A stretch of DNA of 50,563 nt from Elusimicrobiales bacterium. GTDB lineage: Bacteria; Elusimicrobiota; Elusimicrobia; Elusimicrobiales; UBA9959. Position 1 is the stretch's first letter. The number at the start of each line of letters is the position of its first letter. The translations under genes were made by a program, and so were the position numbers. The notes beneath the pieces are model-generated. The model saw only the letters and a list, made by a program, of their open reading frames with translations. It had not been told where the DNA came from and did not search any database. The DNA is taken from NCBI GenBank assembly GCA_049972095.1, contig JBMFKQ010000008.1, forward strand, positions 1 through 50,563, written 5' to 3'. This document shows, in pieces, positions 2,283 to 35,991 of this stretch.

Positions 2283-4020
2283 CAACTCAAAAGTATCTGA
2301 TATTCTGAAGAAAATGGCTTTTCTTTGTGAGCTTGAGGCAGAGAATCCTTTCAAGGTAAGAGCATACTATAAAGCAGCAGATGCCATAGATATGCTTGTT
2401 AAAGATCTTTCTGAGATGAGTGATGATGAACTGCTTGAAATAAATGGAATAGGAAAGGGAATGCTTTCTCATATAAGGGATATAATAGCTAAAGGGAGTT
2501 TTGATGAGTATGTTGCTCTTTCAAAAAAATATCCTGCTACAATTTTTGAGCTATCTGAAATTGGAGGTCTTGGTCCAAAAAGAATAAAAATTCTTTACGA
2601 AAAACTTGCTATTGATACCAAAGAAAAGCTTTATAGAGCTGCAAAAAACGGTGATATAGCAAAGCTTGATGGTTTTGGGGAAAAGATAGAGAAAAAAATT
2701 ATTGAGTCAATTGAAAGAAATGAAATAACATCAAAGAGATTTTTGATTTCAAAAGCACAGTTTAATGCCGCAAATATTGTTGATTTTATTAAAAAGCTTG
2801 GCTATAAAAAGGTTGAGTATGCTGGCAGTTTAAGAAGAGGCAAGGAGACAGTTGGGGATATAGATGTAGTTGTTGCAGGTGATCCATCAGCAGCATCAAA
2901 GATTGCTAAGTATCCGGGTGTGTTAAAAGTTGTTGCTGAAGGGCCAACAAAGGTATCTTTTATTCTTTCAGATTCAATGCAGTGTGATGTTAGAATAGTA
3001 AGCGAAGAGTCTTTTGGTGCAGCGCTTTGTTATTTTACAGGTTCGAAAGAGCACAACATAGCTCTTAGAGAAATAGCAGCAGGTAAAGGATATACCCTTA
3101 ATGAATATGGACTTTTTAGAAAGGGAAGTAAAAAACCAATTGCCTCAAGAACAGAGCATGAGATATACAAAGCACTTGGGCTTAGCTATATACCGCCAGA
3201 GCTTAGGGAGAATCAAGGAGAGATTGAGCTTGCTCAAAAGAATATGATCCCAAAGCTTGTTGAGCTGTCTGATATAAAAGGTGAGATACACTGCCATACA
3301 GATATGACAGATGGCAATATGTCTTTAGAGGAGATTGTGGATTATCTTTCTCAAATTTATGAGTGGTTTTTTATAGGTGATCATTCTTATCCTTTGAGGT
3401 TTGTAAAAGGGCTTGATTATAAAGCTTATATAAGCTCAAGAGAAAAGCTCATTTCAATAAGGGATAAATATCCGAAGGTTTCATTTGATAGGTCTATAGA
3501 GCTTGAGATACTGAAAGATGGGAGTCTTGCTTTTGAGGATAGTGAGCTTGAAAATGTTTCGCTTGTTATATCTGCAGCACATACCTTAACCAAGATGAAA
3601 AGAGATGATATGACATCTCGTATGATAAAAGCTATTTCAAATCCTTATTGTGATGTTGTGGCTCATCTTTCTCAAAGACTTATTTTTCAAAGGGATGAGG
3701 TTGATATGGATTATGATCTTGTATTTGAAAAGGCAAAGGAGTTTAATACAATTTTTGAGGTCAATGGTCAGCCTGATAGACTTGATCTTAAAGATGTTAA
3801 TATCAAAAAGGTTAAAGGCATGGGGCTTAAAGTAGTTCTTAGCTCCGATGCTCATTCAAAGGAGCAGTTTTCATATATTGAATATGCTGTTAAGATTGCA
3901 AGAAGAGCCTGGCTTACAAAGGATGATGTGCTTAATACTTATTCATTTAAAGATTTTGTTGAGTTTATAAAGGAAAAAAGGGCTTACAGAAAAAAATTAA
4001 AGTCAAAGACAAATGGCTAA
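2269..4020 (+). CDS. polX: DNA polymerase X family / PHP 3'-5' exonuclease
   Basis: ENPFKVRAY, HhH motifs, AGSLRRGKETVGDIDV, YFTGSKEHN, IPPELRE; PHP motifs HCHT, DHS, SDAH. ATG at 2269 preferred to TTG at 2260. Confidence 0.93.
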   Translation: MSFYNNSKVSDILKKMAFLCELEAENPFKVRAYYKAADAIDMLVKDLSEMSDDELLEINGIGKGMLSHIRDIIAKGSFDEYVALSKKYPATIFELSEIGGLGPKRIKILYEKLAIDTKEKLYRAAKNGDIAKLDGFGEKIEKKIIESIERNEITSKRFLISKAQFNAANIVDFIKKLGYKKVEYAGSLRRGKETVGDIDVVVAGDPSAASKIAKYPGVLKVVAEGPTKVSFILSDSMQCDVRIVSEESFGAALCYFTGSKEHNIALREIAAGKGYTLNEYGLFRKGSKKPIASRTEHEIYKALGLSYIPPELRENQGEIELAQKNMIPKLVELSDIKGEIHCHTDMTDGNMSLEEIVDYLSQIYEWFFIGDHSYPLRFVKGLDYKAYISSREKLISIRDKYPKVSFDRSIELEILKDGSLAFEDSELENVSLVISAAHTLTKMKRDDMTSRMIKAISNPYCDVVAHLSQRLIFQRDEVDMDYDLVFEKAKEFNTIFEVNGQPDRLDLKDVNIKKVKGMGLKVVLSSDAHSKEQFSYIEYAVKIARRAWLTKDDVLNTYSFKDFVEFIKEKRAYRKKLKSKTNG

Positions 4021-27252: not shown

Positions 27253-29925
27253 ATGAACTCAAGAGAGATAAGAGATAGGTTTCTTGATTTTTTCAAGAAA
27301 AAAGATCACCCAATAATTCCTTCAAGTCCACTTGTGCCTTATGGGGATCCTACCCTTCTTTTCACAAGCGCAGGGATGGTTCAGTTTAAACCATATTATC
27401 TTGGCTTAAAAACAGATTTGAAAAGAGCAGCAAGCTGTCAGAAGTGTTTTAGAACAACTGATATAGATAATGTTGGCAGAACAATAAAACATCTTACATT
27501 TTTTGAGATGCTTGGAAACTTCTCTTTTGGTGATTACTTTAAAGAGGAATCACTGAGGTGGGGTTATGAGTTTTTGACATCAGAAATGGGACTTGATCCT
27601 GAAAGGCTCTATTTTTCATACTACAAAGGTGGGATTGCACCTAAGGATAATGAGACATATGATATATGGAAGAGGATTCTTTCCCATCATCTGCATTCCC
27701 ATATATTTGAACTTGGTGAGGATAATTTCTGGTCTATGGGAGATACAGGACCAAGTGGTCCATGCTCTGAGATATATTATGATCGTGGAGAGGTTTATCA
27801 TCCAAACTGTCCTGGTCCATGGTGTGGCTGTGATAGATACATTGAGATATGGAATCATGTGTTTACTCAGTTTGATAAACAGGTTGATGGTAGTTTTAAG
27901 CTGCTTCCTAAAAAGAATATTGATACAGGTATGGGCCTTGAAAGACTCTCATTTATAGTTGAAAAGAGATTTTCTCCATTTGAGACATCACTTTTTTTCC
28001 CTATTATTGAGAGATTTATATTAGAAAACAACATAACAGATTCTAACTTTAAAAGATTTTCACAAGTAATTATTGAAAATTATACATCGCCTGATCTTTA
28101 CAAAAAACTTTCATCAGCTGCTTTTGATGTTTTCATCCCTGCACTAAGAATAATATCCGATCATATAAAAGGTGCTGTATTTCTTATATCCGAAGGTGTT
28201 ATTCCATCAAATGAAGCAAGGGGTTATTTGCTTAGAAGGCTTATAAGAAGAGCTCTTAGGTATGCTATGATTATTGGTGTGAAAGAACCATGCCTTTTTA
28301 GATTAGCAGATACTGTCAAGGATATATATAGCGATGTTTATCCTACCATAGAACAGAATATCTCTGTGATAAAAGAGGTTATTGAAAATGAAGAGAAGGG
28401 TTTTATTGAGATGCTTGAGAAAGGCGAAAGATATATAAACGAGCTTCTTGAAAAAAGGCAGTTATCAGGCTCGCAAGCTTTTTGGATATATGAAACCTAT
28501 GGTTTTCCTTATGAGCTTATAAAAGAGATCGCTGTTAAAAAGGGAATAGTCATATCTGATAGTGAGTTTGAAGAAGCAAAAAAAAGAGCGAAAGACAGGT
28601 CAAGAAAATGGAGATTTATAGATTCCTCTTTAGGAATATTTGACAGTATTAACTCAAAAATGCCAAAAACATGTTTTACAGGTTATGACAGACTCAACGA
28701 AAGTTCACAACTCTGTGCAGTGATAGATAGAGATGGAAATGAGTTGATGGAGGCGCAAGGCAGTGAGTTTTTTCTTGTCTTTGATAAAACCCCATTTTAT
28801 GCTGAGTCTGGAGGTCAAGTTGCTGATAGTGGAGTTATAAAAAAGGAAGGAAAGATCGTTGGGGTTGTTGTTGATGTTCAAAAGCCTTTTGGTGATGTCT
28901 TTTATCATAAAACAGTTCTTAAAGAAAAGGTAAAAGTTGGTGAGATTTATGAACTTTGTGTTGATGTGATTAAGAGAAAGAAAATATCTGCCAATCATAC
29001 CGCAACACATCTCATCAATGCATCACTCAAAAAAGTTTTTGGTTTAGGCGTTGTTCAGGCTGGCTCTCTTGTTGATGATGAAAAGTTTAGATTTGACTAC
29101 ACCCTTTCAAGACAGCCTACTCTTGAGGAGATCAAAAAGGTTGAGAAGGTTGCAAATGAGGCAATAGCTGAGGGTTTTAAGGTTCATACTGATATAAGAC
29201 CTCTTGATGATGCCAAAAGATTAGATGCGGTTATACTTCCAGGTGAAAGATATTCAGACCCTGCGAGGTTTGTTCTTATAAATCGTAGTGGTTTTTCTGA
29301 TGTATCGTCAAGATTTAGTCTTGAGCTCTGCGGTGGCACACATGTTAAGAATCTTGAGGAGGTTTTTAGGATAAAGATAATAAAAGAGGGATCGTTGTCA
29401 AGAGGAATAAGAAGGATTGAGGGAGTTTCAGGTTATAGCCTTTTAGATTATCTTGAGTCAAAAGAAAAAAGACTTATTCAGATATCGCAAATTCTTGAGG
29501 TTGATGAGGGTGATATTGAGGCAAGGATATTAAAGATGAAAAATGATATAAAATCTCTTTCTGATAAGTTAAGAGATCTTTCATTAACTAATTCTATATC
29601 TGATGAGATTTTTAATGTTAAAAACCTTAAGTTTGTTTTTGTAAGACTTGCACAGGCAGATATCAAAACAATAAGATCTGCGGCTGATAAAAAGAAAAAA
29701 GAATTTTCTTCTGCTATTATATTTATATATGCCGTTAATGGTTCAAAGGTATCATTTGTTATAACAAAAACAGATGACGCAGGGGTTTCTGTTAAGGAGA
29801 TTTTTACAAGGCTTAAAGACAGCTATAATATCAGAGGTGGTGGTAGGGATGATTTTATTCAGGGTGGTGGTATTATAGAAGATATTAATGAGTTTAAAAA
29901 GAAGATTTGTCAAACAATAAACTGA
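27253..29925 (+). CDS. alaS: alanine--tRNA ligase
   Basis: TLLFTSAGM, HLTFFEMLGNFSFGDYFK, IDTGMGLER, TPFYAESGGQ, editing motifs HTATH and ELCGGTH, C-terminal GGGR. Confidence 0.97.
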   Translation: MNSREIRDRFLDFFKKKDHPIIPSSPLVPYGDPTLLFTSAGMVQFKPYYLGLKTDLKRAASCQKCFRTTDIDNVGRTIKHLTFFEMLGNFSFGDYFKEESLRWGYEFLTSEMGLDPERLYFSYYKGGIAPKDNETYDIWKRILSHHLHSHIFELGEDNFWSMGDTGPSGPCSEIYYDRGEVYHPNCPGPWCGCDRYIEIWNHVFTQFDKQVDGSFKLLPKKNIDTGMGLERLSFIVEKRFSPFETSLFFPIIERFILENNITDSNFKRFSQVIIENYTSPDLYKKLSSAAFDVFIPALRIISDHIKGAVFLISEGVIPSNEARGYLLRRLIRRALRYAMIIGVKEPCLFRLADTVKDIYSDVYPTIEQNISVIKEVIENEEKGFIEMLEKGERYINELLEKRQLSGSQAFWIYETYGFPYELIKEIAVKKGIVISDSEFEEAKKRAKDRSRKWRFIDSSLGIFDSINSKMPKTCFTGYDRLNESSQLCAVIDRDGNELMEAQGSEFFLVFDKTPFYAESGGQVADSGVIKKEGKIVGVVVDVQKPFGDVFYHKTVLKEKVKVGEIYELCVDVIKRKKISANHTATHLINASLKKVFGLGVVQAGSLVDDEKFRFDYTLSRQPTLEEIKKVEKVANEAIAEGFKVHTDIRPLDDAKRLDAVILPGERYSDPARFVLINRSGFSDVSSRFSLELCGGTHVKNLEEVFRIKIIKEGSLSRGIRRIEGVSGYSLLDYLESKEKRLIQISQILEVDEGDIEARILKMKNDIKSLSDKLRDLSLTNSISDEIFNVKNLKFVFVRLAQADIKTIRSAADKKKKEFSSAIIFIYAVNGSKVSFVITKTDDAGVSVKEIFTRLKDSYNIRGGGRDDFIQGGGIIEDINEFKKKICQTIN

Positions 29926-30158
29926 TGCTTGAGAAAAAACTTGAACAACTTGAAAAAGAGATTATCAACCTGCTTGAAAGGATTAAAATGCTTTATGCAC
30001 AAAATATGAAGTTGGCTCAGGAACTTAGGCTTTTCAAGGAAAGGGAGAGATATTTGCTTTCAGAGATAGAAAGGCTTAAGAAAAGCAAGTTTGAGGATAA
30101 GATAAAAAATAAGCTTGAAGATATAAGTCGTATGATAGAAAGAGAGATTCACAGATGA
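29925..30158 (+). CDS. ZapB-like coiled-coil protein
   Basis: TGATG overlap with alaS; LEQLEKEIINLLERIKML...NMKL heptads; precedes a zapA-like gene. Confidence 0.55.
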   Translation: MLEKKLEQLEKEIINLLERIKMLYAQNMKLAQELRLFKERERYLLSEIERLKKSKFEDKIKNKLEDISRMIEREIHR

Positions 30159-30445
30159 AGGTATCTTTGAGGATAAAAAACAGAAATGTAGCTGTGAGTA
30201 TAGAGGATCAGATTACTGATATTGAAATATCCCATATTGAAGGTGTTATATCCCATGATATAGAAAAGCTTGAGAAAAAAATACCAGATACAATAACAGT
30301 GCTTACAACACTTATTGGGGATTATGCTGTAAGGCTTTATGTTAAAGATAGACAGCTTAAACAGCTAAGAGAAACTGTTGATAAGAAGATAGACGAACTC
30401 ATAGAAAAAGCAAAGGATATAGACAGATCATCTTCATATCTGTAA
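30155..30445 (+). CDS. ZapA-like cell division protein
   Basis: Beta-beta start VSLRIKNRNVAV, two helices and a C-terminal coiled coil; size and context fit ZapA. Confidence 0.55.
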   Translation: MKVSLRIKNRNVAVSIEDQITDIEISHIEGVISHDIEKLEKKIPDTITVLTTLIGDYAVRLYVKDRQLKQLRETVDKKIDELIEKAKDIDRSSSYL

Positions 30446-30446
30446 T

Positions 30447-31706
30447 ATGGAATCCCTTCTTCATAGGATGATGCCTTTAAGCCTTGATGAATTTATTGGT
30501 CAGAGACATCTTGTTGGTGAAGGATGTTTTCTTAGAAAGATGATTGATAGTCAAAACATAAGATCCTGTCTTTTCTATGGGCCAAGTGGAAGTGGCAAGA
30601 CTGCTCTTTCACACATAATATCAAAAAGAATAAACGCCGAGGTTTTTTCTTTCAATGCTGCATTGTCATCCATCACTGATATAAAAAAAATAATGGATAA
30701 AACCCAATCTTTGTTTTCAGATAAAAAGTTAGTTGTAATAATAGATGAGATACATCACTTCAACACAAATCAACAAGATGTTTTTCTTCCCTTTATTGAG
30801 GATAAAGACATAACAGTCATAGGTATAACCACGCGTAATCCATTCTTCTACATAAATAGAGCATTAATGTCAAGATTTATTATCTGTGAGTTCAAACCTC
30901 TTAATGATGATGAGATGGACATTCTTATTGACAGAGTAATTAGTAAGGGTTTTGAAGGAAGGATTAAAATAACGGAAAGCGCAAGAAGATTTTTTATAAA
31001 GTTTGCCGGTGGTGATGCAAGAAAGCTGATAAACTTTATTGATGCAGCCTCCATTGTTGCAAAGAATGAAGTTATAGATGATACTGTAATAAAGGAGCTT
31101 TCACTTAACAGATATCTTGAGTATGATAAAAGGCAGGATTATCACTATGATATTGTATCAGCCTTTATAAAATCAATGAGAGGAAGCGATCCTGATGCTA
31201 CAGTCTATTGGCTTGCAAGGATGATTGAAGCTGGTGAAGATCCTCTTTTTATAGCAAGAAGAATTGTCATTGCTGCGTCCGAGGATGTTGGGCTTGCAAA
31301 TCCTATGGCACTGGTTATTGCACAGATGGCCTATGAGTCGGTTGAAAGAGTTGGAATGCCTGAGGGGAGAATAATACTTGCTCACGCTGCACTTTATGTC
31401 ACCCTTTCTCCTAAATCAAACTCAGCTTATTTGGCGATTGAAAAGGCGATTGATGAGGTAAGGAATGGTCCAAAAAGAGATGTTCCGCCTCATCTTAGAG
31501 ATCCTCATCTTGATGGTAAATTTTTTGGAGATGGCAAGGGATATAAATATCCTCATGATTATCCTGGCCATTATGTCAAGCAACAGTATATGCCAAATCC
31601 CGTAAGGTTTTATGAGCCTACCGATCAAGGAAATGAGGCAAGGATAAAGCAGTTTTTGAAAGAGCTTATAGACAAATGTAAAAAATATCATGAAGAAGAG
31701 ACTTGA
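30447..31706 (+). CDS. rarA: replication-associated recombination protein A (AAA+)
   Basis: GPSGSGKT, IDEIHHF, SAFIKSMRGSDPDA, ASEDVGLA, VPPHLRD, YKYPHDY. Confidence 0.95.
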   Translation: MESLLHRMMPLSLDEFIGQRHLVGEGCFLRKMIDSQNIRSCLFYGPSGSGKTALSHIISKRINAEVFSFNAALSSITDIKKIMDKTQSLFSDKKLVVIIDEIHHFNTNQQDVFLPFIEDKDITVIGITTRNPFFYINRALMSRFIICEFKPLNDDEMDILIDRVISKGFEGRIKITESARRFFIKFAGGDARKLINFIDAASIVAKNEVIDDTVIKELSLNRYLEYDKRQDYHYDIVSAFIKSMRGSDPDATVYWLARMIEAGEDPLFIARRIVIAASEDVGLANPMALVIAQMAYESVERVGMPEGRIILAHAALYVTLSPKSNSAYLAIEKAIDEVRNGPKRDVPPHLRDPHLDGKFFGDGKGYKYPHDYPGHYVKQQYMPNPVRFYEPTDQGNEARIKQFLKELIDKCKKYHEEET

Positions 31707-32433
31707 TCTAAGATGTGTTGATATTGGAATTTTTGAGTCAAGGGAAAAGGCAAGGCGAGCAATTATGGCTGGTGAGGTTGAGGTTAATGGCCGGGTTGTT
31801 ATGGATTGTTCTTTTCTGACAAAAGACAAAGACTTTATCTCTGTTAAAAAGGGATTGTGCCCATATGTTTCAAGAGGGGGTCTTAAGCTTAAAGCAGCAA
31901 TTGATGCTTTTAATATAGATCTAAGAAATAAAGTTTGTCTTGATGTAGGGGTTGCAACAGGTGGTTTTTCACATTGTATGCTTGAGCTTGGTGCTCGAAA
32001 GGTTTATGGTGTTGATGTTGGAAAAGGACAGGTCCATGAAAAGGTTTTGAATGATAAAAGATTTGTTTTTATTCCAAATACAAATGCAAGATATCTTACA
32101 GCTAATCTATTTGATGAGGCTATTGAGTTTGCAGCAGTTGATGTAAGCTTTATATCTTTGAGACTTGTTATACCACCAGTTTTAAACTCGATTAAGAGAT
32201 ATGCCGAAGTTGTTCTTTTAGTAAAACCGCAGTTTGAACTTTCAAAATGGGATCTTGTAAAGGGGATAGTTAAAACTGAAGAGCTTAGAGTAAGAGCACT
32301 TATGAATATAAAGGATTTTATAAGGGAAGGTGGTTTTGCTGAGATTGTTGGTGAGATGGAGTCACCTATAAAGGGTATAAGCGGAAACAGAGAGTTTCTT
32401 CTTTATATTAGAAATCTGAAAGGATATTTATGA
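31690..32433 (+). CDS. tlyA: TlyA-family rRNA methyltransferase
   Basis: S4 domain, YVSRGGLKL, DVGVATGGF, DVSFISL, LVKPQFE, GNREF. Confidence 0.93.
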   Translation: MKKRLDLRCVDIGIFESREKARRAIMAGEVEVNGRVVMDCSFLTKDKDFISVKKGLCPYVSRGGLKLKAAIDAFNIDLRNKVCLDVGVATGGFSHCMLELGARKVYGVDVGKGQVHEKVLNDKRFVFIPNTNARYLTANLFDEAIEFAAVDVSFISLRLVIPPVLNSIKRYAEVVLLVKPQFELSKWDLVKGIVKTEELRVRALMNIKDFIREGGFAEIVGEMESPIKGISGNREFLLYIRNLKGYL

Positions 32434-33566
32434 GGAAATACGAGCTTCTTTCATGTGTGTGGGAGATTACGCTTGCATGCAATCTTAAATGTCTTCACTG
32501 CGGTTCTTCTGCCGGGAAAAAGAGGGATGATGAGCTTGATCTTGATAAGTCTTTGAAATTATGTGTGGATCTTAAAAAAACGGGATGTAAAGCTGTAGCA
32601 CTAATGGGTGGCGAGCCACTTTTAAACCCTCACTTTAAGGATATTGCCATAAAGATAAGAGAGCTTGGTATGGAGCTTTGTGTTATTACAAATGGAACGC
32701 TTTATAATGATGAGATTATTGAGTTTCTTGCAAAACTTAAACCAAGGGCTGTTGCAACAAGCATTGATGGATCAACTGCTTCAACACACGATAAAATAAG
32801 AGGAGTTAATGGTGCTTTTAAAAAGACGATGAATTTTATGGAAAAATGCCTTGAGAAAGATATACCTTTGAGCGTTATCACATCAGTTTCAAAGCTTAAT
32901 ATCTCTGAGCTTTCCGGTATAGCCCAGATGATAAAGGGTAAAAAAATAGCATGGCAGATTCAGATGGTTGGTGCTGAGGGGATAAGATTTGATAAGAGAT
33001 ATCTTCTTGATGAGGATGAGTTTTATTCTGTTGGTGTTTTTATTGAGGCTTTGAGGCGAAGGTACAGTATTTATGAGCTTGCTGTTATAGGAGCTCATGA
33101 TATGGGTTATAACTCCTGCTTCATAAAGAATATATGGCTTTATGATAAATGGCAGGGTTGTCAGGCAGGAATTAGTGTTGTTGGTATAAGAAGCAATGGT
33201 GATGTAGTTGGATGTCTTTCGATTAACAATGATAGGTTTGTTGAAGGAAATATAAACGAAAGAAGTATCTATGATATATGGAATGACTCAAATTCATTTT
33301 CATATAACCGTAAGTTTAAAAAGGAAGATGCTGGGCCTTTGTGTGCTGATTGTTGCTATATAGCTGAATGTGGTGGTGGGTGCAGTGAGGTGTCGTTGAT
33401 GAAGACAGGAATGATTCATAATGATCCTTACTGCTTCTATCGCTATGAAAAAAAACATCTTAGCTGGTTTAAAAGATTTTTGCTTTCTCTCTATTCCAGA
33501 TTTTGGATTAAAAAGGATACTCATCTGCTTAACAGATTCTTTGGAGGCGAGAGAAATGAAGCTTAA
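32430..33566 (+). CDS. radical SAM/SPASM domain protein
   Basis: VWEITLACNLKCLHC (CxxxCxxC), MGGEP, ITNG, SIDG; SPASM cysteines CQAG...DVVGC...CADC...CGGGC...PYC. Confidence 0.92.
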   Translation: MRKYELLSCVWEITLACNLKCLHCGSSAGKKRDDELDLDKSLKLCVDLKKTGCKAVALMGGEPLLNPHFKDIAIKIRELGMELCVITNGTLYNDEIIEFLAKLKPRAVATSIDGSTASTHDKIRGVNGAFKKTMNFMEKCLEKDIPLSVITSVSKLNISELSGIAQMIKGKKIAWQIQMVGAEGIRFDKRYLLDEDEFYSVGVFIEALRRRYSIYELAVIGAHDMGYNSCFIKNIWLYDKWQGCQAGISVVGIRSNGDVVGCLSINNDRFVEGNINERSIYDIWNDSNSFSYNRKFKKEDAGPLCADCCYIAECGGGCSEVSLMKTGMIHNDPYCFYRYEKKHLSWFKRFLLSLYSRFWIKKDTHLLNRFFGGERNEA

Positions 33567-34479
33567 TGCCGGCTGCGGTAGAGAAAAACTTAAAGGCTAC
33601 ATAAATATAGACATAAATCCCGCCTTTAAGCCAGACTATATTATGGCTGTTTGGGATCTTGATTTTGATGATATGGTTTTTGATGAGATTTTAGCAAAGC
33701 AGGTTATTGAGCATTTAGGTTATTTTAAAACCATCTATTTTCTTTCTGAGGCTTTAAGAACACTTAAATACGAGAAAATACTTATAATAGAAACTGTTGA
33801 TGTCGAGGAATCTTTTAAACTATTTCTTGAAAATAAAGACAAAGATGTAAAGGAAAGGATTTGTGGCTGGATATTTGGAAGTGAAACTGAATATATGAAC
33901 CATATCTATTGCTTTCCTGAAGAGCTTCTTGAAAGGCTCTTTGAAAGAATAGGTTTTGAAATTGTAAAAAAAGAGAAGTTTCTATTTGAATATATGCGAC
34001 CTGCTTTAAGGTATATTTGTATTAAAAGAAAAAAAGACCTTAAAGAGGTGTTTTTGAGAAAGAGCCTTGTGAAAAATGGGATCTTTAACTTTAAGGATGA
34101 AATTGTCTTTTCTGAAACAGAAAGAATTATTGAACAGCTAAGATGGGAAAATGTGGATAAGAGATATCTTTATGATCTTTCATTTGTTTCTCCTATTTTT
34201 TCATATGCAGTTTGCAGCTATGTTAAAGGGGAAGAACCATCATTTTATCTTGAACTTTTTAAGAAAAATTTTACAGGATATATATGGGAAAGATTTGCAA
34301 GATACATTAAACTTTATCGTTCTTTTAAAGTTGCTTACGATAGAATTAAGGAAGAGTATTTTGACAATCCTTATCAATTTATATATAATTTTATGGAAGA
34401 GAGTAGGGTCATAAAGGCTAAGAAGTTTCTTATAACTGAAACTTTGCTCAGATACGACTTCGCAGATATGGAGGTGTAA
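33556..34479 (+). CDS. class I SAM-dependent methyltransferase with C-terminal extension
   Basis: SD ggagg before ATG 33556; KLNAGCG, YINID, DEILAKQVIEHL. The track start at 33421 looks over-extended. Confidence 0.8.
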   Translation: MKLNAGCGREKLKGYINIDINPAFKPDYIMAVWDLDFDDMVFDEILAKQVIEHLGYFKTIYFLSEALRTLKYEKILIIETVDVEESFKLFLENKDKDVKERICGWIFGSETEYMNHIYCFPEELLERLFERIGFEIVKKEKFLFEYMRPALRYICIKRKKDLKEVFLRKSLVKNGIFNFKDEIVFSETERIIEQLRWENVDKRYLYDLSFVSPIFSYAVCSYVKGEEPSFYLELFKKNFTGYIWERFARYIKLYRSFKVAYDRIKEEYFDNPYQFIYNFMEESRVIKAKKFLITETLLRYDFADMEV

Positions 34480-34481
34480 GG

Positions 34482-34793
34482 ATGTCGCTGAAAGATATTG
34501 TTTTAAAAACAGGCCTTAAGAAGGATGATGTAAAATATATCAAATTTTCTTTCGCAGGTATTGTTGCAATTCTGTCCTCATTTCTTAGTTCATGCTCTAA
34601 GAATGGTGTTAAAGAGCTTGATAATACAGCACCAAGTGTTTCATCAACACAAACATATGTTATTGAGAAGTCAAGCAATGTTAGAGATATAATAGATACT
34701 CCTGAGGATTTTAAAAATAAAAACTGCGGACCTACGCCGGGATATCCTTGCGGAACAAAATACTACACAGTTAGCATAAAGGATTTTGTATAA
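34482..34793 (+). CDS. small putative lipoprotein with C-terminal CGPTPGYPCGT motif
   Basis: SD ggagg; h-region FSFAGIVAILSSF with lipobox LSS-C; polar linker; Cys-X7-Cys tail. Confidence 0.7.
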   Translation: MSLKDIVLKTGLKKDDVKYIKFSFAGIVAILSSFLSSCSKNGVKELDNTAPSVSSTQTYVIEKSSNVRDIIDTPEDFKNKNCGPTPGYPCGTKYYTVSIKDFV

Positions 34794-34813
34794 TTAGCAG
34801 ACATATAAGCATA

Positions 34814-34842
34814 TTGACAATTTTAAGAGTATATGCTATAAT
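34814..34842 (+). promoter_or_regulatory. consensus sigma70 promoter of the hrcA operon
   Basis: TTGACA (34814-34819), 17 nt, TATAAT (34837-34842) with extended TG. Confidence 0.9.
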
Positions 34843-34846
34843 ATTA

Positions 34847-34873
34847 TTAGCAGTTAATCATTGTGGTTGCTAA
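34847..34873. promoter_or_regulatory. CIRCE operator (HrcA site)
   Basis: TTAGCAGTT-N9-GGTTGCTAA versus consensus TTAGCACTC-N9-GAGTGCTAA, directly upstream of hrcA. Confidence 0.85.
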
Positions 34874-34887
34874 AAAAGTGTGGTGTT

Positions 34888-35991
34888 ATGAGGGTTATTA
34901 AACCTGAGGTTGCAAGTCGAAGGAAGGAGATAATACTTAACTGGCTTACCCATAGATACATAGTTTCAGGAAAGCCTGTAAGTTCTCAAGAGATATTTGA
35001 TGCCGGAATTATAGATATTTCACCTGCCACAATAAGAAACATTCTTAAAGAGCTGGATGATGAGGGTTATCTTGAGCAGGTTCATACATCTGGTGGGAGG
35101 ATACCAACTGATAAGGCATACAGATTTTACATAGAGAGTATACTTAAGACTCAGGCGATTGCTGAGGCGGAAAAAGAAAGGATTGAGATAGAGTATGAAA
35201 AGAAAATGGCTGAACTTGATTATTTTTTAAAAAACACTACAAAGCTTCTTTCTGATCTTACGAAAAAGGTTGGTTTTTCAATGGTTTCTGATATAAAATC
35301 TGAAGAGATAAAAAGAATTGATATAATTGGGGTTTCCTTATCCAGCTATATACTTATTCTTGTTACATCAACAGGGATAGTAAAACATTATCCATTAATC
35401 CTTTCTTCAAGGGCCGAGAAACTAAAAGTTAGCTCAATTGTCCGGCTGCTTAATAAAAGGCTTAAAGGTCTAACAATTGCTGAAGCAGCTGAGATTATTA
35501 AAAAGGATTATCTTTTAAGGGATGATAGTGGTATTTTTAATGCTATTTATGAGATATTTGGTGCCATCATAAATGAGGATGATGAGATTTTTATAGAGGG
35601 AATTTCAAGGATATATGAGGATGACAAGGGTGTATCTATTGAGGATATAAGAAATGTATCAAGACTTCTTGAGGAAAAAGAAAGATTTTCAAGAATTATA
35701 AAAGAAAGGTTTTGCGATGCTCTCAATAGAGTCAAGATAATTGAATCAGATAAAGGTATTAAACCAGCAAAAAAACATCTTATAGATGTTAGCATTGGAG
35801 GTGAGAGTAATATTAAAGATCTTGGGAATTTTAGTATAGTTAGCTCATTCTACTCCATAGGTGATAAAAATTGCGGAATTCTTGGGATAATAGGACATAG
35901 AAGAATGGAGTATCCTAAAATTATATCTATAATAGACACTGTAAGCTCCATAATTGAAGAGGTAATTGAGGAATGGCAAAGGGAGATGTAA
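34888..35991 (+). CDS. hrcA: heat-inducible transcription repressor HrcA
   Basis: PVSS, SPATIRN, HTSGGRIPTDKAYRFY, GIIG..RMEY; ATG 34888 lies downstream of CIRCE. Confidence 0.94.
   Translation: MRVIKPEVASRRKEIILNWLTHRYIVSGKPVSSQEIFDAGIIDISPATIRNILKELDDEGYLEQVHTSGGRIPTDKAYRFYIESILKTQAIAEAEKERIEIEYEKKMAELDYFLKNTTKLLSDLTKKVGFSMVSDIKSEEIKRIDIIGVSLSSYILILVTSTGIVKHYPLILSSRAEKLKVSSIVRLLNKRLKGLTIAEAAEIIKKDYLLRDDSGIFNAIYEIFGAIINEDDEIFIEGISRIYEDDKGVSIEDIRNVSRLLEEKERFSRIIKERFCDALNRVKIIESDKGIKPAKKHLIDVSIGGESNIKDLGNFSIVSSFYSIGDKNCGILGIIGHRRMEYPKIISIIDTVSSIIEEVIEEWQREM

Follow-up and report, generated by a model that had tools for sequence, protein, structure and literature searches.

Three coupled genes of an Elusimicrobiales bacterium make up a real and conserved, apparently undescribed system of the splicease kind, whose chemistry is predicted. 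They lie in a window of 50,563 nucleotides, the whole stretch that was analysed (GenBank assembly GCA_049972095.1, contig JBMFKQ010000008.1), and encode a radical S-adenosylmethionine (rSAM) enzyme with a SPASM domain, a class I methyltransferase and a small lipoprotein. The C-terminal tail of the small protein is very probably the substrate of both enzymes, and radical chemistry likely occurs at its Tyr94. More tentatively, and with slightly less than even confidence, the trio is read as a binary peptide-maturation system related to spliceotides, which dispenses with a recognition element (RRE) for RiPPs (peptides that the ribosome makes and that are modified after translation) and excises tyramine at Tyr94. 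The features concerned are as follows.

32430..33566, + strand: rSAM/SPASM maturase of a splicease-related clade, 378 residues (family scores, trees, shared residues)
33556..34479, + strand: class I SAM-dependent methyltransferase with a helical C-terminal domain (fold search, conserved residues, model)
34361..34389, + strand: candidate internal sigma-70 promoter, perfect TTGACA-17-TATAAT
34482..34793, + strand: precursor lipoprotein made up of a leader, a hydrophobic signal whose lipobox cysteine is Cys38, a linker of low model confidence and a conserved C-terminal tail
34482..34595, + strand: leader helix (KTGLxxxD/E-type), then signal helix and lipobox L35-S-S-C38
34725..34787, + strand: core tail C82-G-P-T-P-G-Y88-P-C90-G-T-K-Y94-Y-T-V-S-I-K-D-F102 (tail conservation)
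34761-34763, + strand: Y94, the predicted radical target, with Y88 as the second conserved tyrosine

The rSAM open reading frame (ORF) overlaps tlyA (31690-32433) by 4 nucleotides. The methyltransferase ORF (307 residues) begins at an ATG at 33556, overlapping the rSAM gene by 11 nucleotides, and the precursor ORF (103 residues) follows it after a gap of 2 nucleotides, with a Shine-Dalgarno sequence, GGAGGTG, at 34470-34476. The trio sits downstream of tlyA and upstream of hrcA-grpE-dnaK-dnaJ, and the tight coupling of three genes between tlyA and the hrcA promoter, described in an earlier sequence-only reading of this DNA, is confirmed. No terminator-like site was found in 29500-35200.

Co-occurrence of the three genes

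When 61 genomes (this one and 60 relatives) were searched with each of the three proteins, all three were found in 23, none in 34 and part of the set in 4, a tally that overstates the association, since kin are not independent. Matches were counted at E≤0.01 for the small protein, E<1e-15 for the methyltransferase and E<1e-80 for the enzyme; the count leaves out weak methyltransferase matches in genomes G004, G016 and G038 and, in G050, an enzyme of 38% identity. Because so many genomes hold either the complete set or nothing, the grouping of the three genes exceeds chance, and the proposal of the sequence-only reading that they form one unit has withstood the co-occurrence check. The usual order is tlyA, enzyme, methyltransferase and precursor, and the genes downstream vary. 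The precursor lies on another contig than the enzymes in G027, G012 and G021, and these separated precursors keep the tail; no enzyme orthologue was found in G014, G032 and G001, the methyltransferase lying at a contig end in the first two.

The system extends well beyond the Elusimicrobiota. An alignment search of genome contigs with the enzyme gave 584 relatives, from which 79 loci were kept, 68 with the methyltransferase, 62 with an automatically recognised precursor and 54 with both. The bacterial loci belong to Elusimicrobiota, Geobacteraceae, Syntrophus, Smithellaceae, Nitrospiraceae and Anaerolineae, and the archaeal ones to Thorarchaeota, Promethearchaeota, Hodarchaeota, Thermoplasmata and Undinarchaeota. 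Diverged precursor candidates were recognised by eye at loci L110, L115, L118, L119, L123, L125 and L126. The middle of the precursor differs by lineage: Elusimicrobiales have a lipoprotein signal there, Asgard archaea a single membrane helix (hydrophobic in 60 of 60), and Deltaproteobacteria and Nitrospiraceae a signal followed by a Kunitz domain (PF00014). Thermoplasmata have none of these; their precursors are about 60-70 residues long and occur in several copies, and 0 of 28 are hydrophobic. Precursors often stand in 2-4 tandem copies. Ends that stay constant around a freely varying middle, together with the tandem copies next to the enzymes, suggest the anatomy of a RiPP precursor, and the earlier description of the lipoprotein as RiPP-like agrees with its conserved leader, variable linker and conserved tail.

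Several loci show further features. Precursors of Geobacteraceae, Syntrophus, Smithellaceae and Nitrospiraceae (L086-L090, and protein P0044) bear their Kunitz/BPTI domain between signal and tail, and at L086-L090 the precursor gene lies just upstream of the enzyme. Thermoplasmata loci L050, L053, L100, L102, L103, L106, L107, L109 and L112 hold two paralogous enzymes and several soluble precursors of 57-77 residues, mostly with the methyltransferase and often with a PaaK/F390-synthetase-like gene. Among the diverged precursors (L118:1711-2684, L123:2562-4014, L119, L125, L110 and L126), Thermoflexales proteins bear repeated Y-x-A-G-T-x-Y-S-V-F-G tails and CxxC pairs, and those of Hodarchaeota and Undinarchaeota are two-helix membrane proteins ending in Y-G-V-F or Y-x-x-Y. 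U32-family genes stand between enzyme and methyltransferase in some Elusimicrobiales (L052:5157-7536, L111:5136-8189), and at L010/L026 (G006:C110:5126-5776) a tandem precursor duplicate has its second copy interrupted by TGA. The precursor is cut before the tail at L032:5980-6270 (G005), where the methyltransferase is also shortened to 206 residues, and at L033:6735-6926 (G007), where it is followed on the opposite strand by a putative restriction-modification pair. A small ORF after the precursor in L005, L006 and L007 (genera g13 and g2) encodes what we take to resemble a bacterial microcompartment shell protein.

Placement of the rSAM/SPASM enzyme

The enzyme carries the rSAM CxxxCxxC motif as C17/C21/C24 and seven SPASM cysteines (C244, C262, C305, C308, C314, C318 and C335), so that the full SPASM set noted earlier can be located, and both Pfam Radical_SAM and SPASM score above their cut-offs. 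No RRE domain was seen in it. It exceeds no NCBIfam family cut-off: the best match, TIGR03913, reaches 176.3 bits against 591.75, TIGR04103 170 bits against 725 and TIGR04133 120.3 bits against 425, and AhbD, NirJ and AhbC score 114-136 bits against 500-650 (AhbD 136 against 500). Membership of TIGR04133, the rSAM/lipoprotein group to which the sequence-only reading had likened the system, is rejected on that score.

In trees built with FastTree from 136 rows and with IQ-TREE from 61 of those rows, the latter without TIGR04133 members, the 40 family rows concordantly form one group (95/95). With IQ-TREE, the family shares a branch of length 0.62 and support 100/99 with L127, L147 and four enzymes of the GDL/nif11-3 type (two carry the annotations TIGR03913 and TIGR04103, a third adjoins DUF1843 peptides and the fourth is unlabelled), the reference rows of the splicease branch (L129-L131) being annotated members and not assayed enzymes. 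The resemblance to the GDL-peptide group that the sequence-only reading suggested fits the tree, which places the enzyme beside it. Among the residues that the four GDL/nif11-3 enzymes share with 90% or more of 101 family rows, and that are rare in 26 outgroup rows, are G25, S26, G29, R32, W175, Q176, Q178, G226 and W241; the motifs shared with TIGR03913/04103-type enzymes are HCGSxAGxxR, W175-Q176-x-Q178 (WQxQ), G226 and W241.

The sub-threshold matches to AhbD, NirJ and AhbC would allow the enzyme to be one of cofactor or heme biosynthesis (AhbC/D, NirJ, PqqE) with unrelated neighbours, and it shares the superfamily and the SPASM cysteine pattern with AhbC, AhbD and NirJ. However, the shared branch excludes the AhbC/D-like rows, including L133, which is itself above the AhbD cut-off; these enzymes stand apart from the family in both trees and are without its signature residues, and a precursor and a methyltransferase accompany the enzyme across domains. 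The clustering with heme or cofactor enzymes that the sequence-only reading had named as its counter-case is thus not seen, a biosynthetic role is highly improbable, and AhbC/D identity is rejected as largely refuted by tree and neighbourhoods. A PDB sequence search with the enzyme returned generic SPASM relatives only (SkfB as the best, and PqqE), with no splicease structure among the matches.

In the IQ-TREE tree, 19 bacterial rows nest among archaeal rows, and the system may possibly have passed from archaea to this bacterial clade. The C-terminal tail of the enzyme comprises about 43 residues, and its segment at 33450-33566 (residues 341-378) opens with the most amphipathic 11-mer of the protein. 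Tail length is 30-69 residues in bacteria, 32-41 in Lokiarchaea and 8-21 in Thermoplasmata and Thorarchaeota; an amphipathic tail could possibly serve as a membrane-binding or a built-in activating helix.

The precursor and its conserved tail

The lipobox reads L-S-S-C38, with the cysteine invariant in 28 of 28 rows and a lipobox-like cysteine in 70 of 78 Elusimicrobiota-type precursors, a group that takes in unnamed database proteins. Given a hydrophobic signal, this lipobox and the Lgt and LspA encoded in the genome, the small protein qualifies as a predicted bacterial lipoprotein. The lipobox cysteine lies late (median position 40), because the leader precedes the signal. Of 171 precursors, 140 show a loose leader-like pattern (G-x-x-x-G-L-x-x-x-E-type), among them soluble proteins of archaea that lack a hydrophobic segment. 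The precursor matches no Pfam or NCBIfam model, DUF1843 included, the ESM Atlas gave no usable feature match, and its structure model is of low confidence (predicted local distance difference test, pLDDT, 63; predicted template-modelling score 0.22).

The most conserved part of the precursor is the tail, with the consensus Y-P-x-G-x-x-Y-x-[TS]-[IV]-S-x-x-D-F. Of 182 distinct precursors, 171 fit the tail pattern; the 11 misfits are mostly small deviations, and one is tail-less. A tail profile gave one significant match, the precursor itself, among 11,694 six-frame ORFs of the genome. The residue corresponding to Tyr94 is tyrosine in all 171 tails, though the pattern permitted Y/F/W, and an upstream tyrosine corresponding to Tyr88, 5-8 residues before it, is present in 170; the one exception is a phenylalanine in L088, whose system lacks the methyltransferase.

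The core cysteines behave differently. Both C82 and C90 are present in 57 of the 78 Elusimicrobiota-type tails and neither in 21, never one alone, and the pair is not conserved in archaeal tails. Because the two are kept or lost together, a C82-C90 disulfide formed after export is probable, although this pattern might go back to one or two events in evolution. The emphasis that the sequence-only reading placed on a cysteine motif must accordingly shift: with two tyrosines near invariant and the cysteines absent from 21 of 78 tails, the conserved target looks like tyrosine. That Cys82 and Cys90 are instead thioether donors, by sactipeptide or ranthipeptide chemistry as in CrpC acting on a protein substrate, could draw on their presence in 57 tails and on SkfB as the best PDB sequence match. 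Protein thioethers made by a SPASM enzyme do exist (PMC13692751), in a cysteine-based archaeal system different from the trio. Nevertheless, this chemistry is very improbable here, given the 21 tails without either cysteine, the intact trio of L046 without core cysteines, and NCBIfam scores that do not group the enzyme with such maturases; the sactipeptide/ranthipeptide assignment is rejected on the ground that its donors are not conserved in the core.

SPASM enzymes commonly cross-link aromatic residues, and cross-linking was the default chemistry of the sequence-only reading. A Tyr88-Tyr94 biaryl or aryl ether, or a macrocycle between Tyr94 and a neighbour (-2 Da), with the methyltransferase tailoring the product, would suit the pair of tyrosines, which stand at a distance of 5-8 residues on either side of a Pro/Gly turn, and the many residues tolerated after Tyr94 (position +1) would suit a side-chain reaction. 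The spacing, however, varies from 4 to 7 intervening residues, which is awkward for a single ring size; sister enzymes adjoin K-Y-G-V repeats without a second tyrosine; and the ring would have to traverse the export channel. The studied neighbours of the enzyme do not cross-link but excise tyramine (-135 Da), and a cross-link is therefore considered unlikely rather than the default. The -2 Da read-out suggested for it would also be confounded by the C82-C90 disulfide.

The identity of the +1 residue follows lineage. Glycine occurs there in 57 of 171 tails, among them all 28 Thermoplasmata-like ones, 22 of the 25 from Thorarchaeota and 4 of the 5 from Deltaproteobacteria/Nitrospiraceae, and serine in 34 of 35 Lokiarchaeal ones; the 78 Elusimicrobiota-type tails have Tyr (46), Phe (10), Ala (9), His (5), Asn (5), Gly (2) or Cys (1). 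The precursor analysed here (P0003) reads Lys-Tyr-Tyr and contains no Y-G. These shifts, which run along with family-specific enzyme residues, and the same placement evidence that supports tyramine excision would also fit a splicease-type start at Tyr94 with another outcome where glycine is missing, be it loss of the side chain, cleavage of the backbone or trimming of the tail to a C-terminal amide. This is held to be still less likely than a cross-link. The enzymes of K-Y-G substrates (L087-L090) nest within the clade of bacterial non-Gly enzymes (100/99), a position that points to a single chemistry with tolerance at +1.

The methyltransferase

Residues 1-160 adopt a class I methyltransferase fold (best match 3sm3, Z 14.7, root-mean-square deviation 2.7, 148 residues aligned) in a model of pLDDT 92.2. 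The glycine motif I, N4-x-G6-C7-G8, and the acidic motif II residue D19 are conserved, as expected of class I, and G8, N17, D19, D27, E52, H53, E65, R68, L70, E79, W105, G108, H116 and G133 are invariant. Fold searches returned generic class I methyltransferases only and barely probed residues 162-307; the ESM Atlas gave generic Methyltransf_11 clusters and unnamed Promethearchaeota clusters. The C-terminal extension of about 150 residues that had seemed unexplained is indeed present and helical, but it is not unique: archaeal homologues of 429-451 residues carry a longer helical form ending in repeats of the tetratricopeptide (TPR) kind, and Elusimicrobial ones range from about 195 to 434 residues. 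The extension is therefore a shortened form of this helical and TPR tail, and probably an eroding domain of the peptide-binding type.

In the genomes with K-Y-G precursors (G050 and G062-G065), no methyltransferase was found by an alignment search that had no positive control and a completeness figure for G050 only. Because it was not found in these five genomes, there are hints that the methyltransferase serves the upstream tyrosine or non-Gly tails. A role specific to non-Gly tails is weighed against by Thermoplasmata and Thorarchaeota, which combine Y-G tails with the methyltransferase. A methyltransferase-only search of genome contigs gave 75 pattern matches, none of which was confirmed.

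Proposed model of maturation

From the observed gene structure, co-occurrence, conservation pattern, phylogenetic placement and methyltransferase fold, we infer each chemical step of the following model. The precursor would be made, possibly in excess by way of its own internal promoter, and its N-terminal leader helix would dock in the cytoplasm on the rSAM/SPASM enzyme in the way that the leader of RhaA docks on RhaX, which requires both the leader helix and residues C-terminal of the site (PMC11414181). The conserved T-V-S-x-x-D-F follower would then place Tyr94. A 5′-deoxyadenosyl radical would initiate tyramine excision at Lys93-Tyr94 to give an alpha-keto-beta-lysine amide, without the usual glycine at +1. 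The methyltransferase would methylate the same tail, Tyr88-OH being a guess as to the site. Finally, the largely unfolded protein would be exported, Cys38 lipidated by Lgt/LspA and the C82-C90 disulfide loop closed, leaving a reactive ketoamide on a membrane tether, probably as a protease-inhibiting group. Such an inhibitory role would fit the precursors of Deltaproteobacteria and Nitrospiraceae, because these are Kunitz fusions.

There is no Y gene in the locus, and the precursor has a conserved helical leader, which might supply an activating helix. Co-folding of the enzyme with the lipoprotein, a check proposed in the sequence-only reading, weakly backs their pairing: the score was 0.56 against 0.03 for the best control, with no interface returned, contact agreement of at least 27% and partner pLDDT of at least 43. 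In the calibration, 116 of 157 solved pairs attained the mark, as against 2 of 215 mismatched ones, but only 18 of the 157 did so with a score of 0.60 or below, as did both mismatches.

Several observations weigh against tyramine excision. The spliceases of the cited spliceotide papers act on X-Y-G, whereas the +1 residue here is tyrosine, and glycine occupies that position in just 2 of 78 tails of the Elusimicrobiota type and 1 of 35 from Lokiarchaea. Those papers also describe no counterpart of the methyltransferase or of the second conserved tyrosine. The tree held no experimentally proven splicease, L129-L131 bearing annotation labels only, and the enzyme shares only about 29% identity with annotated members of the GDL/nif11-3 group, compared with 24-28% for the outgroup, with family-wide differences at M59, N88, I150, Y199, H223, S229, L263 and E340. 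Some of the tail conservation is built in, the precursors having been gathered by similarity, and 11 of 182 are off-pattern. Excision at Tyr94 is put forward with corresponding reserve.

Furthermore, G005 and G007 keep full-length enzymes beside a precursor with leader and lipobox but no tail. Together with the loss of the Y-G motif and the separation of precursor from enzymes in G027, G012 and G021, this could mean that the tail in Elusimicrobiales has lost its role as a radical substrate through drift, with the genes persisting by linkage or the enzymes acting on something else. Such drift appears improbable, though less so than thioether formation, in view of the conservation of the tail, also in the separated precursors, and of the absence of any other tail-bearing ORF from the genome. 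Moreover, P0031, close to the G005 protein, has a full tail, and the truncation in G005 looks recent.

Comparison with described systems

Described spliceotides are made by the tyramine spliceases PlpX/PcpX with PlpY (type I) or by the binary systems RhaX/RhaA, RcsX and RasX (PMC11414181, PMC11626197, PMC10533398). The trio resembles them in an rSAM/SPASM enzyme on the same branch as the TIGR04103-annotated enzyme L131 (with a Nif11 precursor and a small downstream ORF), in the WQxQ and HCGSxAG residues, in its binary layout with a helical leader, in a conserved tyrosine with its follower, and in the X-Y-G of many homologous precursors of other lineages. TIGR04103, the nif11-class maturase 3, is presumably the PlpX family. 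The trio differs in the low identity of its enzyme, which falls far under the TIGR04103 cut-off, and in a precursor without Nif11 match; its lineage has no glycine after the tyrosine, a second conserved tyrosine and a dedicated methyltransferase, and its substrate is a predicted lipoprotein that retains the membrane anchor. Because the X-Y-G signature of spliceotides is missing, the trio is not filed as a member, though it would work like a binary spliceotide system.

The GDL maturases of TIGR03913, which act beside DUF1843 (PF08898) peptides, are the best NCBIfam match and a sister branch of the enzyme. Their loci L129 and L130 likewise hold tandem short precursors with an invariant tyrosine and a conserved follower, and L130 also adjoins a methyltransferase, which did not match the profile of the trio family. 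Their tyrosine, however, lies near the N-terminus, unlike that of the trio near the C-terminus behind a leader, and the trio falls short of both the TIGR03913 cut-off and a DUF1843 match. The Bacteroidetes systems of TIGR04133 also pair a SPASM enzyme with a small lipoprotein, but the enzyme stays below the family cut-off and the lipoprotein matches no NCBIfam model; that cut-off is passed in 0 of 251 Elusimicrobiota genomes, and one control genome passes it.

Other sister enzymes adjoin peptides of more canonical appearance. Those in G050 and G249 stand beside secreted peptides with repeated K-Y-G-V, and the L127 enzyme beside a short ORF ending in M-Y-G. In other Elusimicrobiota, secreted or membrane-anchored peptides with 2-5 Y-G-V repeats lie beside sister enzymes (L047:6860-7432, L152:1015-1485, L159:1194-1433). 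Such Y-G-V repeat peptides are candidate spliceotides of canonical look, without the methyltransferase.

Full-text literature searches, whose coverage does not extend to the main 2022 Chem spliceotide survey, found no description of the trio; the combination of splicease, radical SAM and lipoprotein yielded nothing, 'Elusimicrobi', 'Asgard' and 'Thorarchae' were absent from the matches where looked for, and PMC10288494 has no passage on spliceases. According to a passage of the review PMC10849128, the 2022 survey counted Y-G motifs near 3418 enzymes. Its supplement may list Y-G-bearing archaeal members, and mining by such a motif count, as that passage presents it, would miss the non-Gly branch.

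Candidate internal promoter and neighbouring features

The perfect sigma-70 consensus at 34361-34389 lies in the 3′ end of the methyltransferase gene, 92 nucleotides before the precursor ATG. G019 and G010 have this site in perfect form as well (89 nucleotides), with use of the codon GAC, which is rare (10% of Asp codons in the long ORFs of the window), and it is gone in G027, whose precursor has moved elsewhere. A perfect match alone is not significant, because the 8 perfect sites genome-wide fall within the range of 10 shuffles (2-9). A perfect internal promoter is present in just 3 of 19 precursor upstream regions (3 genomes, 2 genera), and most others score 7-10 of 12, about 1 point above control windows. 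These observations are suggestive only, and the internal promoter may drive the precursor separately.

Downstream, the hrcA promoter at 34814-34842 is also a perfect sigma-70 site and is followed by a 9-9-9 inverted repeat, TTAGCAGTT ... GGTTGCTAA, at 34847-34873, which resembles CIRCE. The true hrcA start probably lies downstream of the TTG at 34861. Elsewhere in the same genome (G000), contig C2 holds a run of at least 10 radical-SAM-like ORFs at about 70000-86200.

Significance of the system

Spliceases are among the few enzymes that place beta-amino acids and a reactive ketoamide in ribosomal proteins, and they serve as protein-labelling tools, so far confined to X-Y-G sites (PMC11414181, PMC10533398). 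The present family supplies natural pairs of enzyme and substrate in which the tyrosine is followed by Gly, Ser, Ala, His, Asn, Phe or Tyr, so that the glycine requirement is directly testable, and it adds a partner methyltransferase to splicease-like systems. In a broader reading that is conceivable but doubtful, splicease relatives in both domains would put a ketoamide or a new tyrosine-derived modification, together with a methyl group, on membrane-tethered proteins without need of X-Y-G. The modification would then be displayed on a lipoprotein with a disulfide-closed tail in Elusimicrobiales, on single-pass membrane proteins in Asgard archaea and beside a Kunitz domain in Deltaproteobacteria. 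The family suggests that uncultured anaerobes and Asgard archaea share a conserved modification at their surface. If the broader reading is true, it would provide a spliceotide with a lipid anchor, a splicease that does not depend on glycine and, for Asgard archaea, a RiPP chemistry at the surface.

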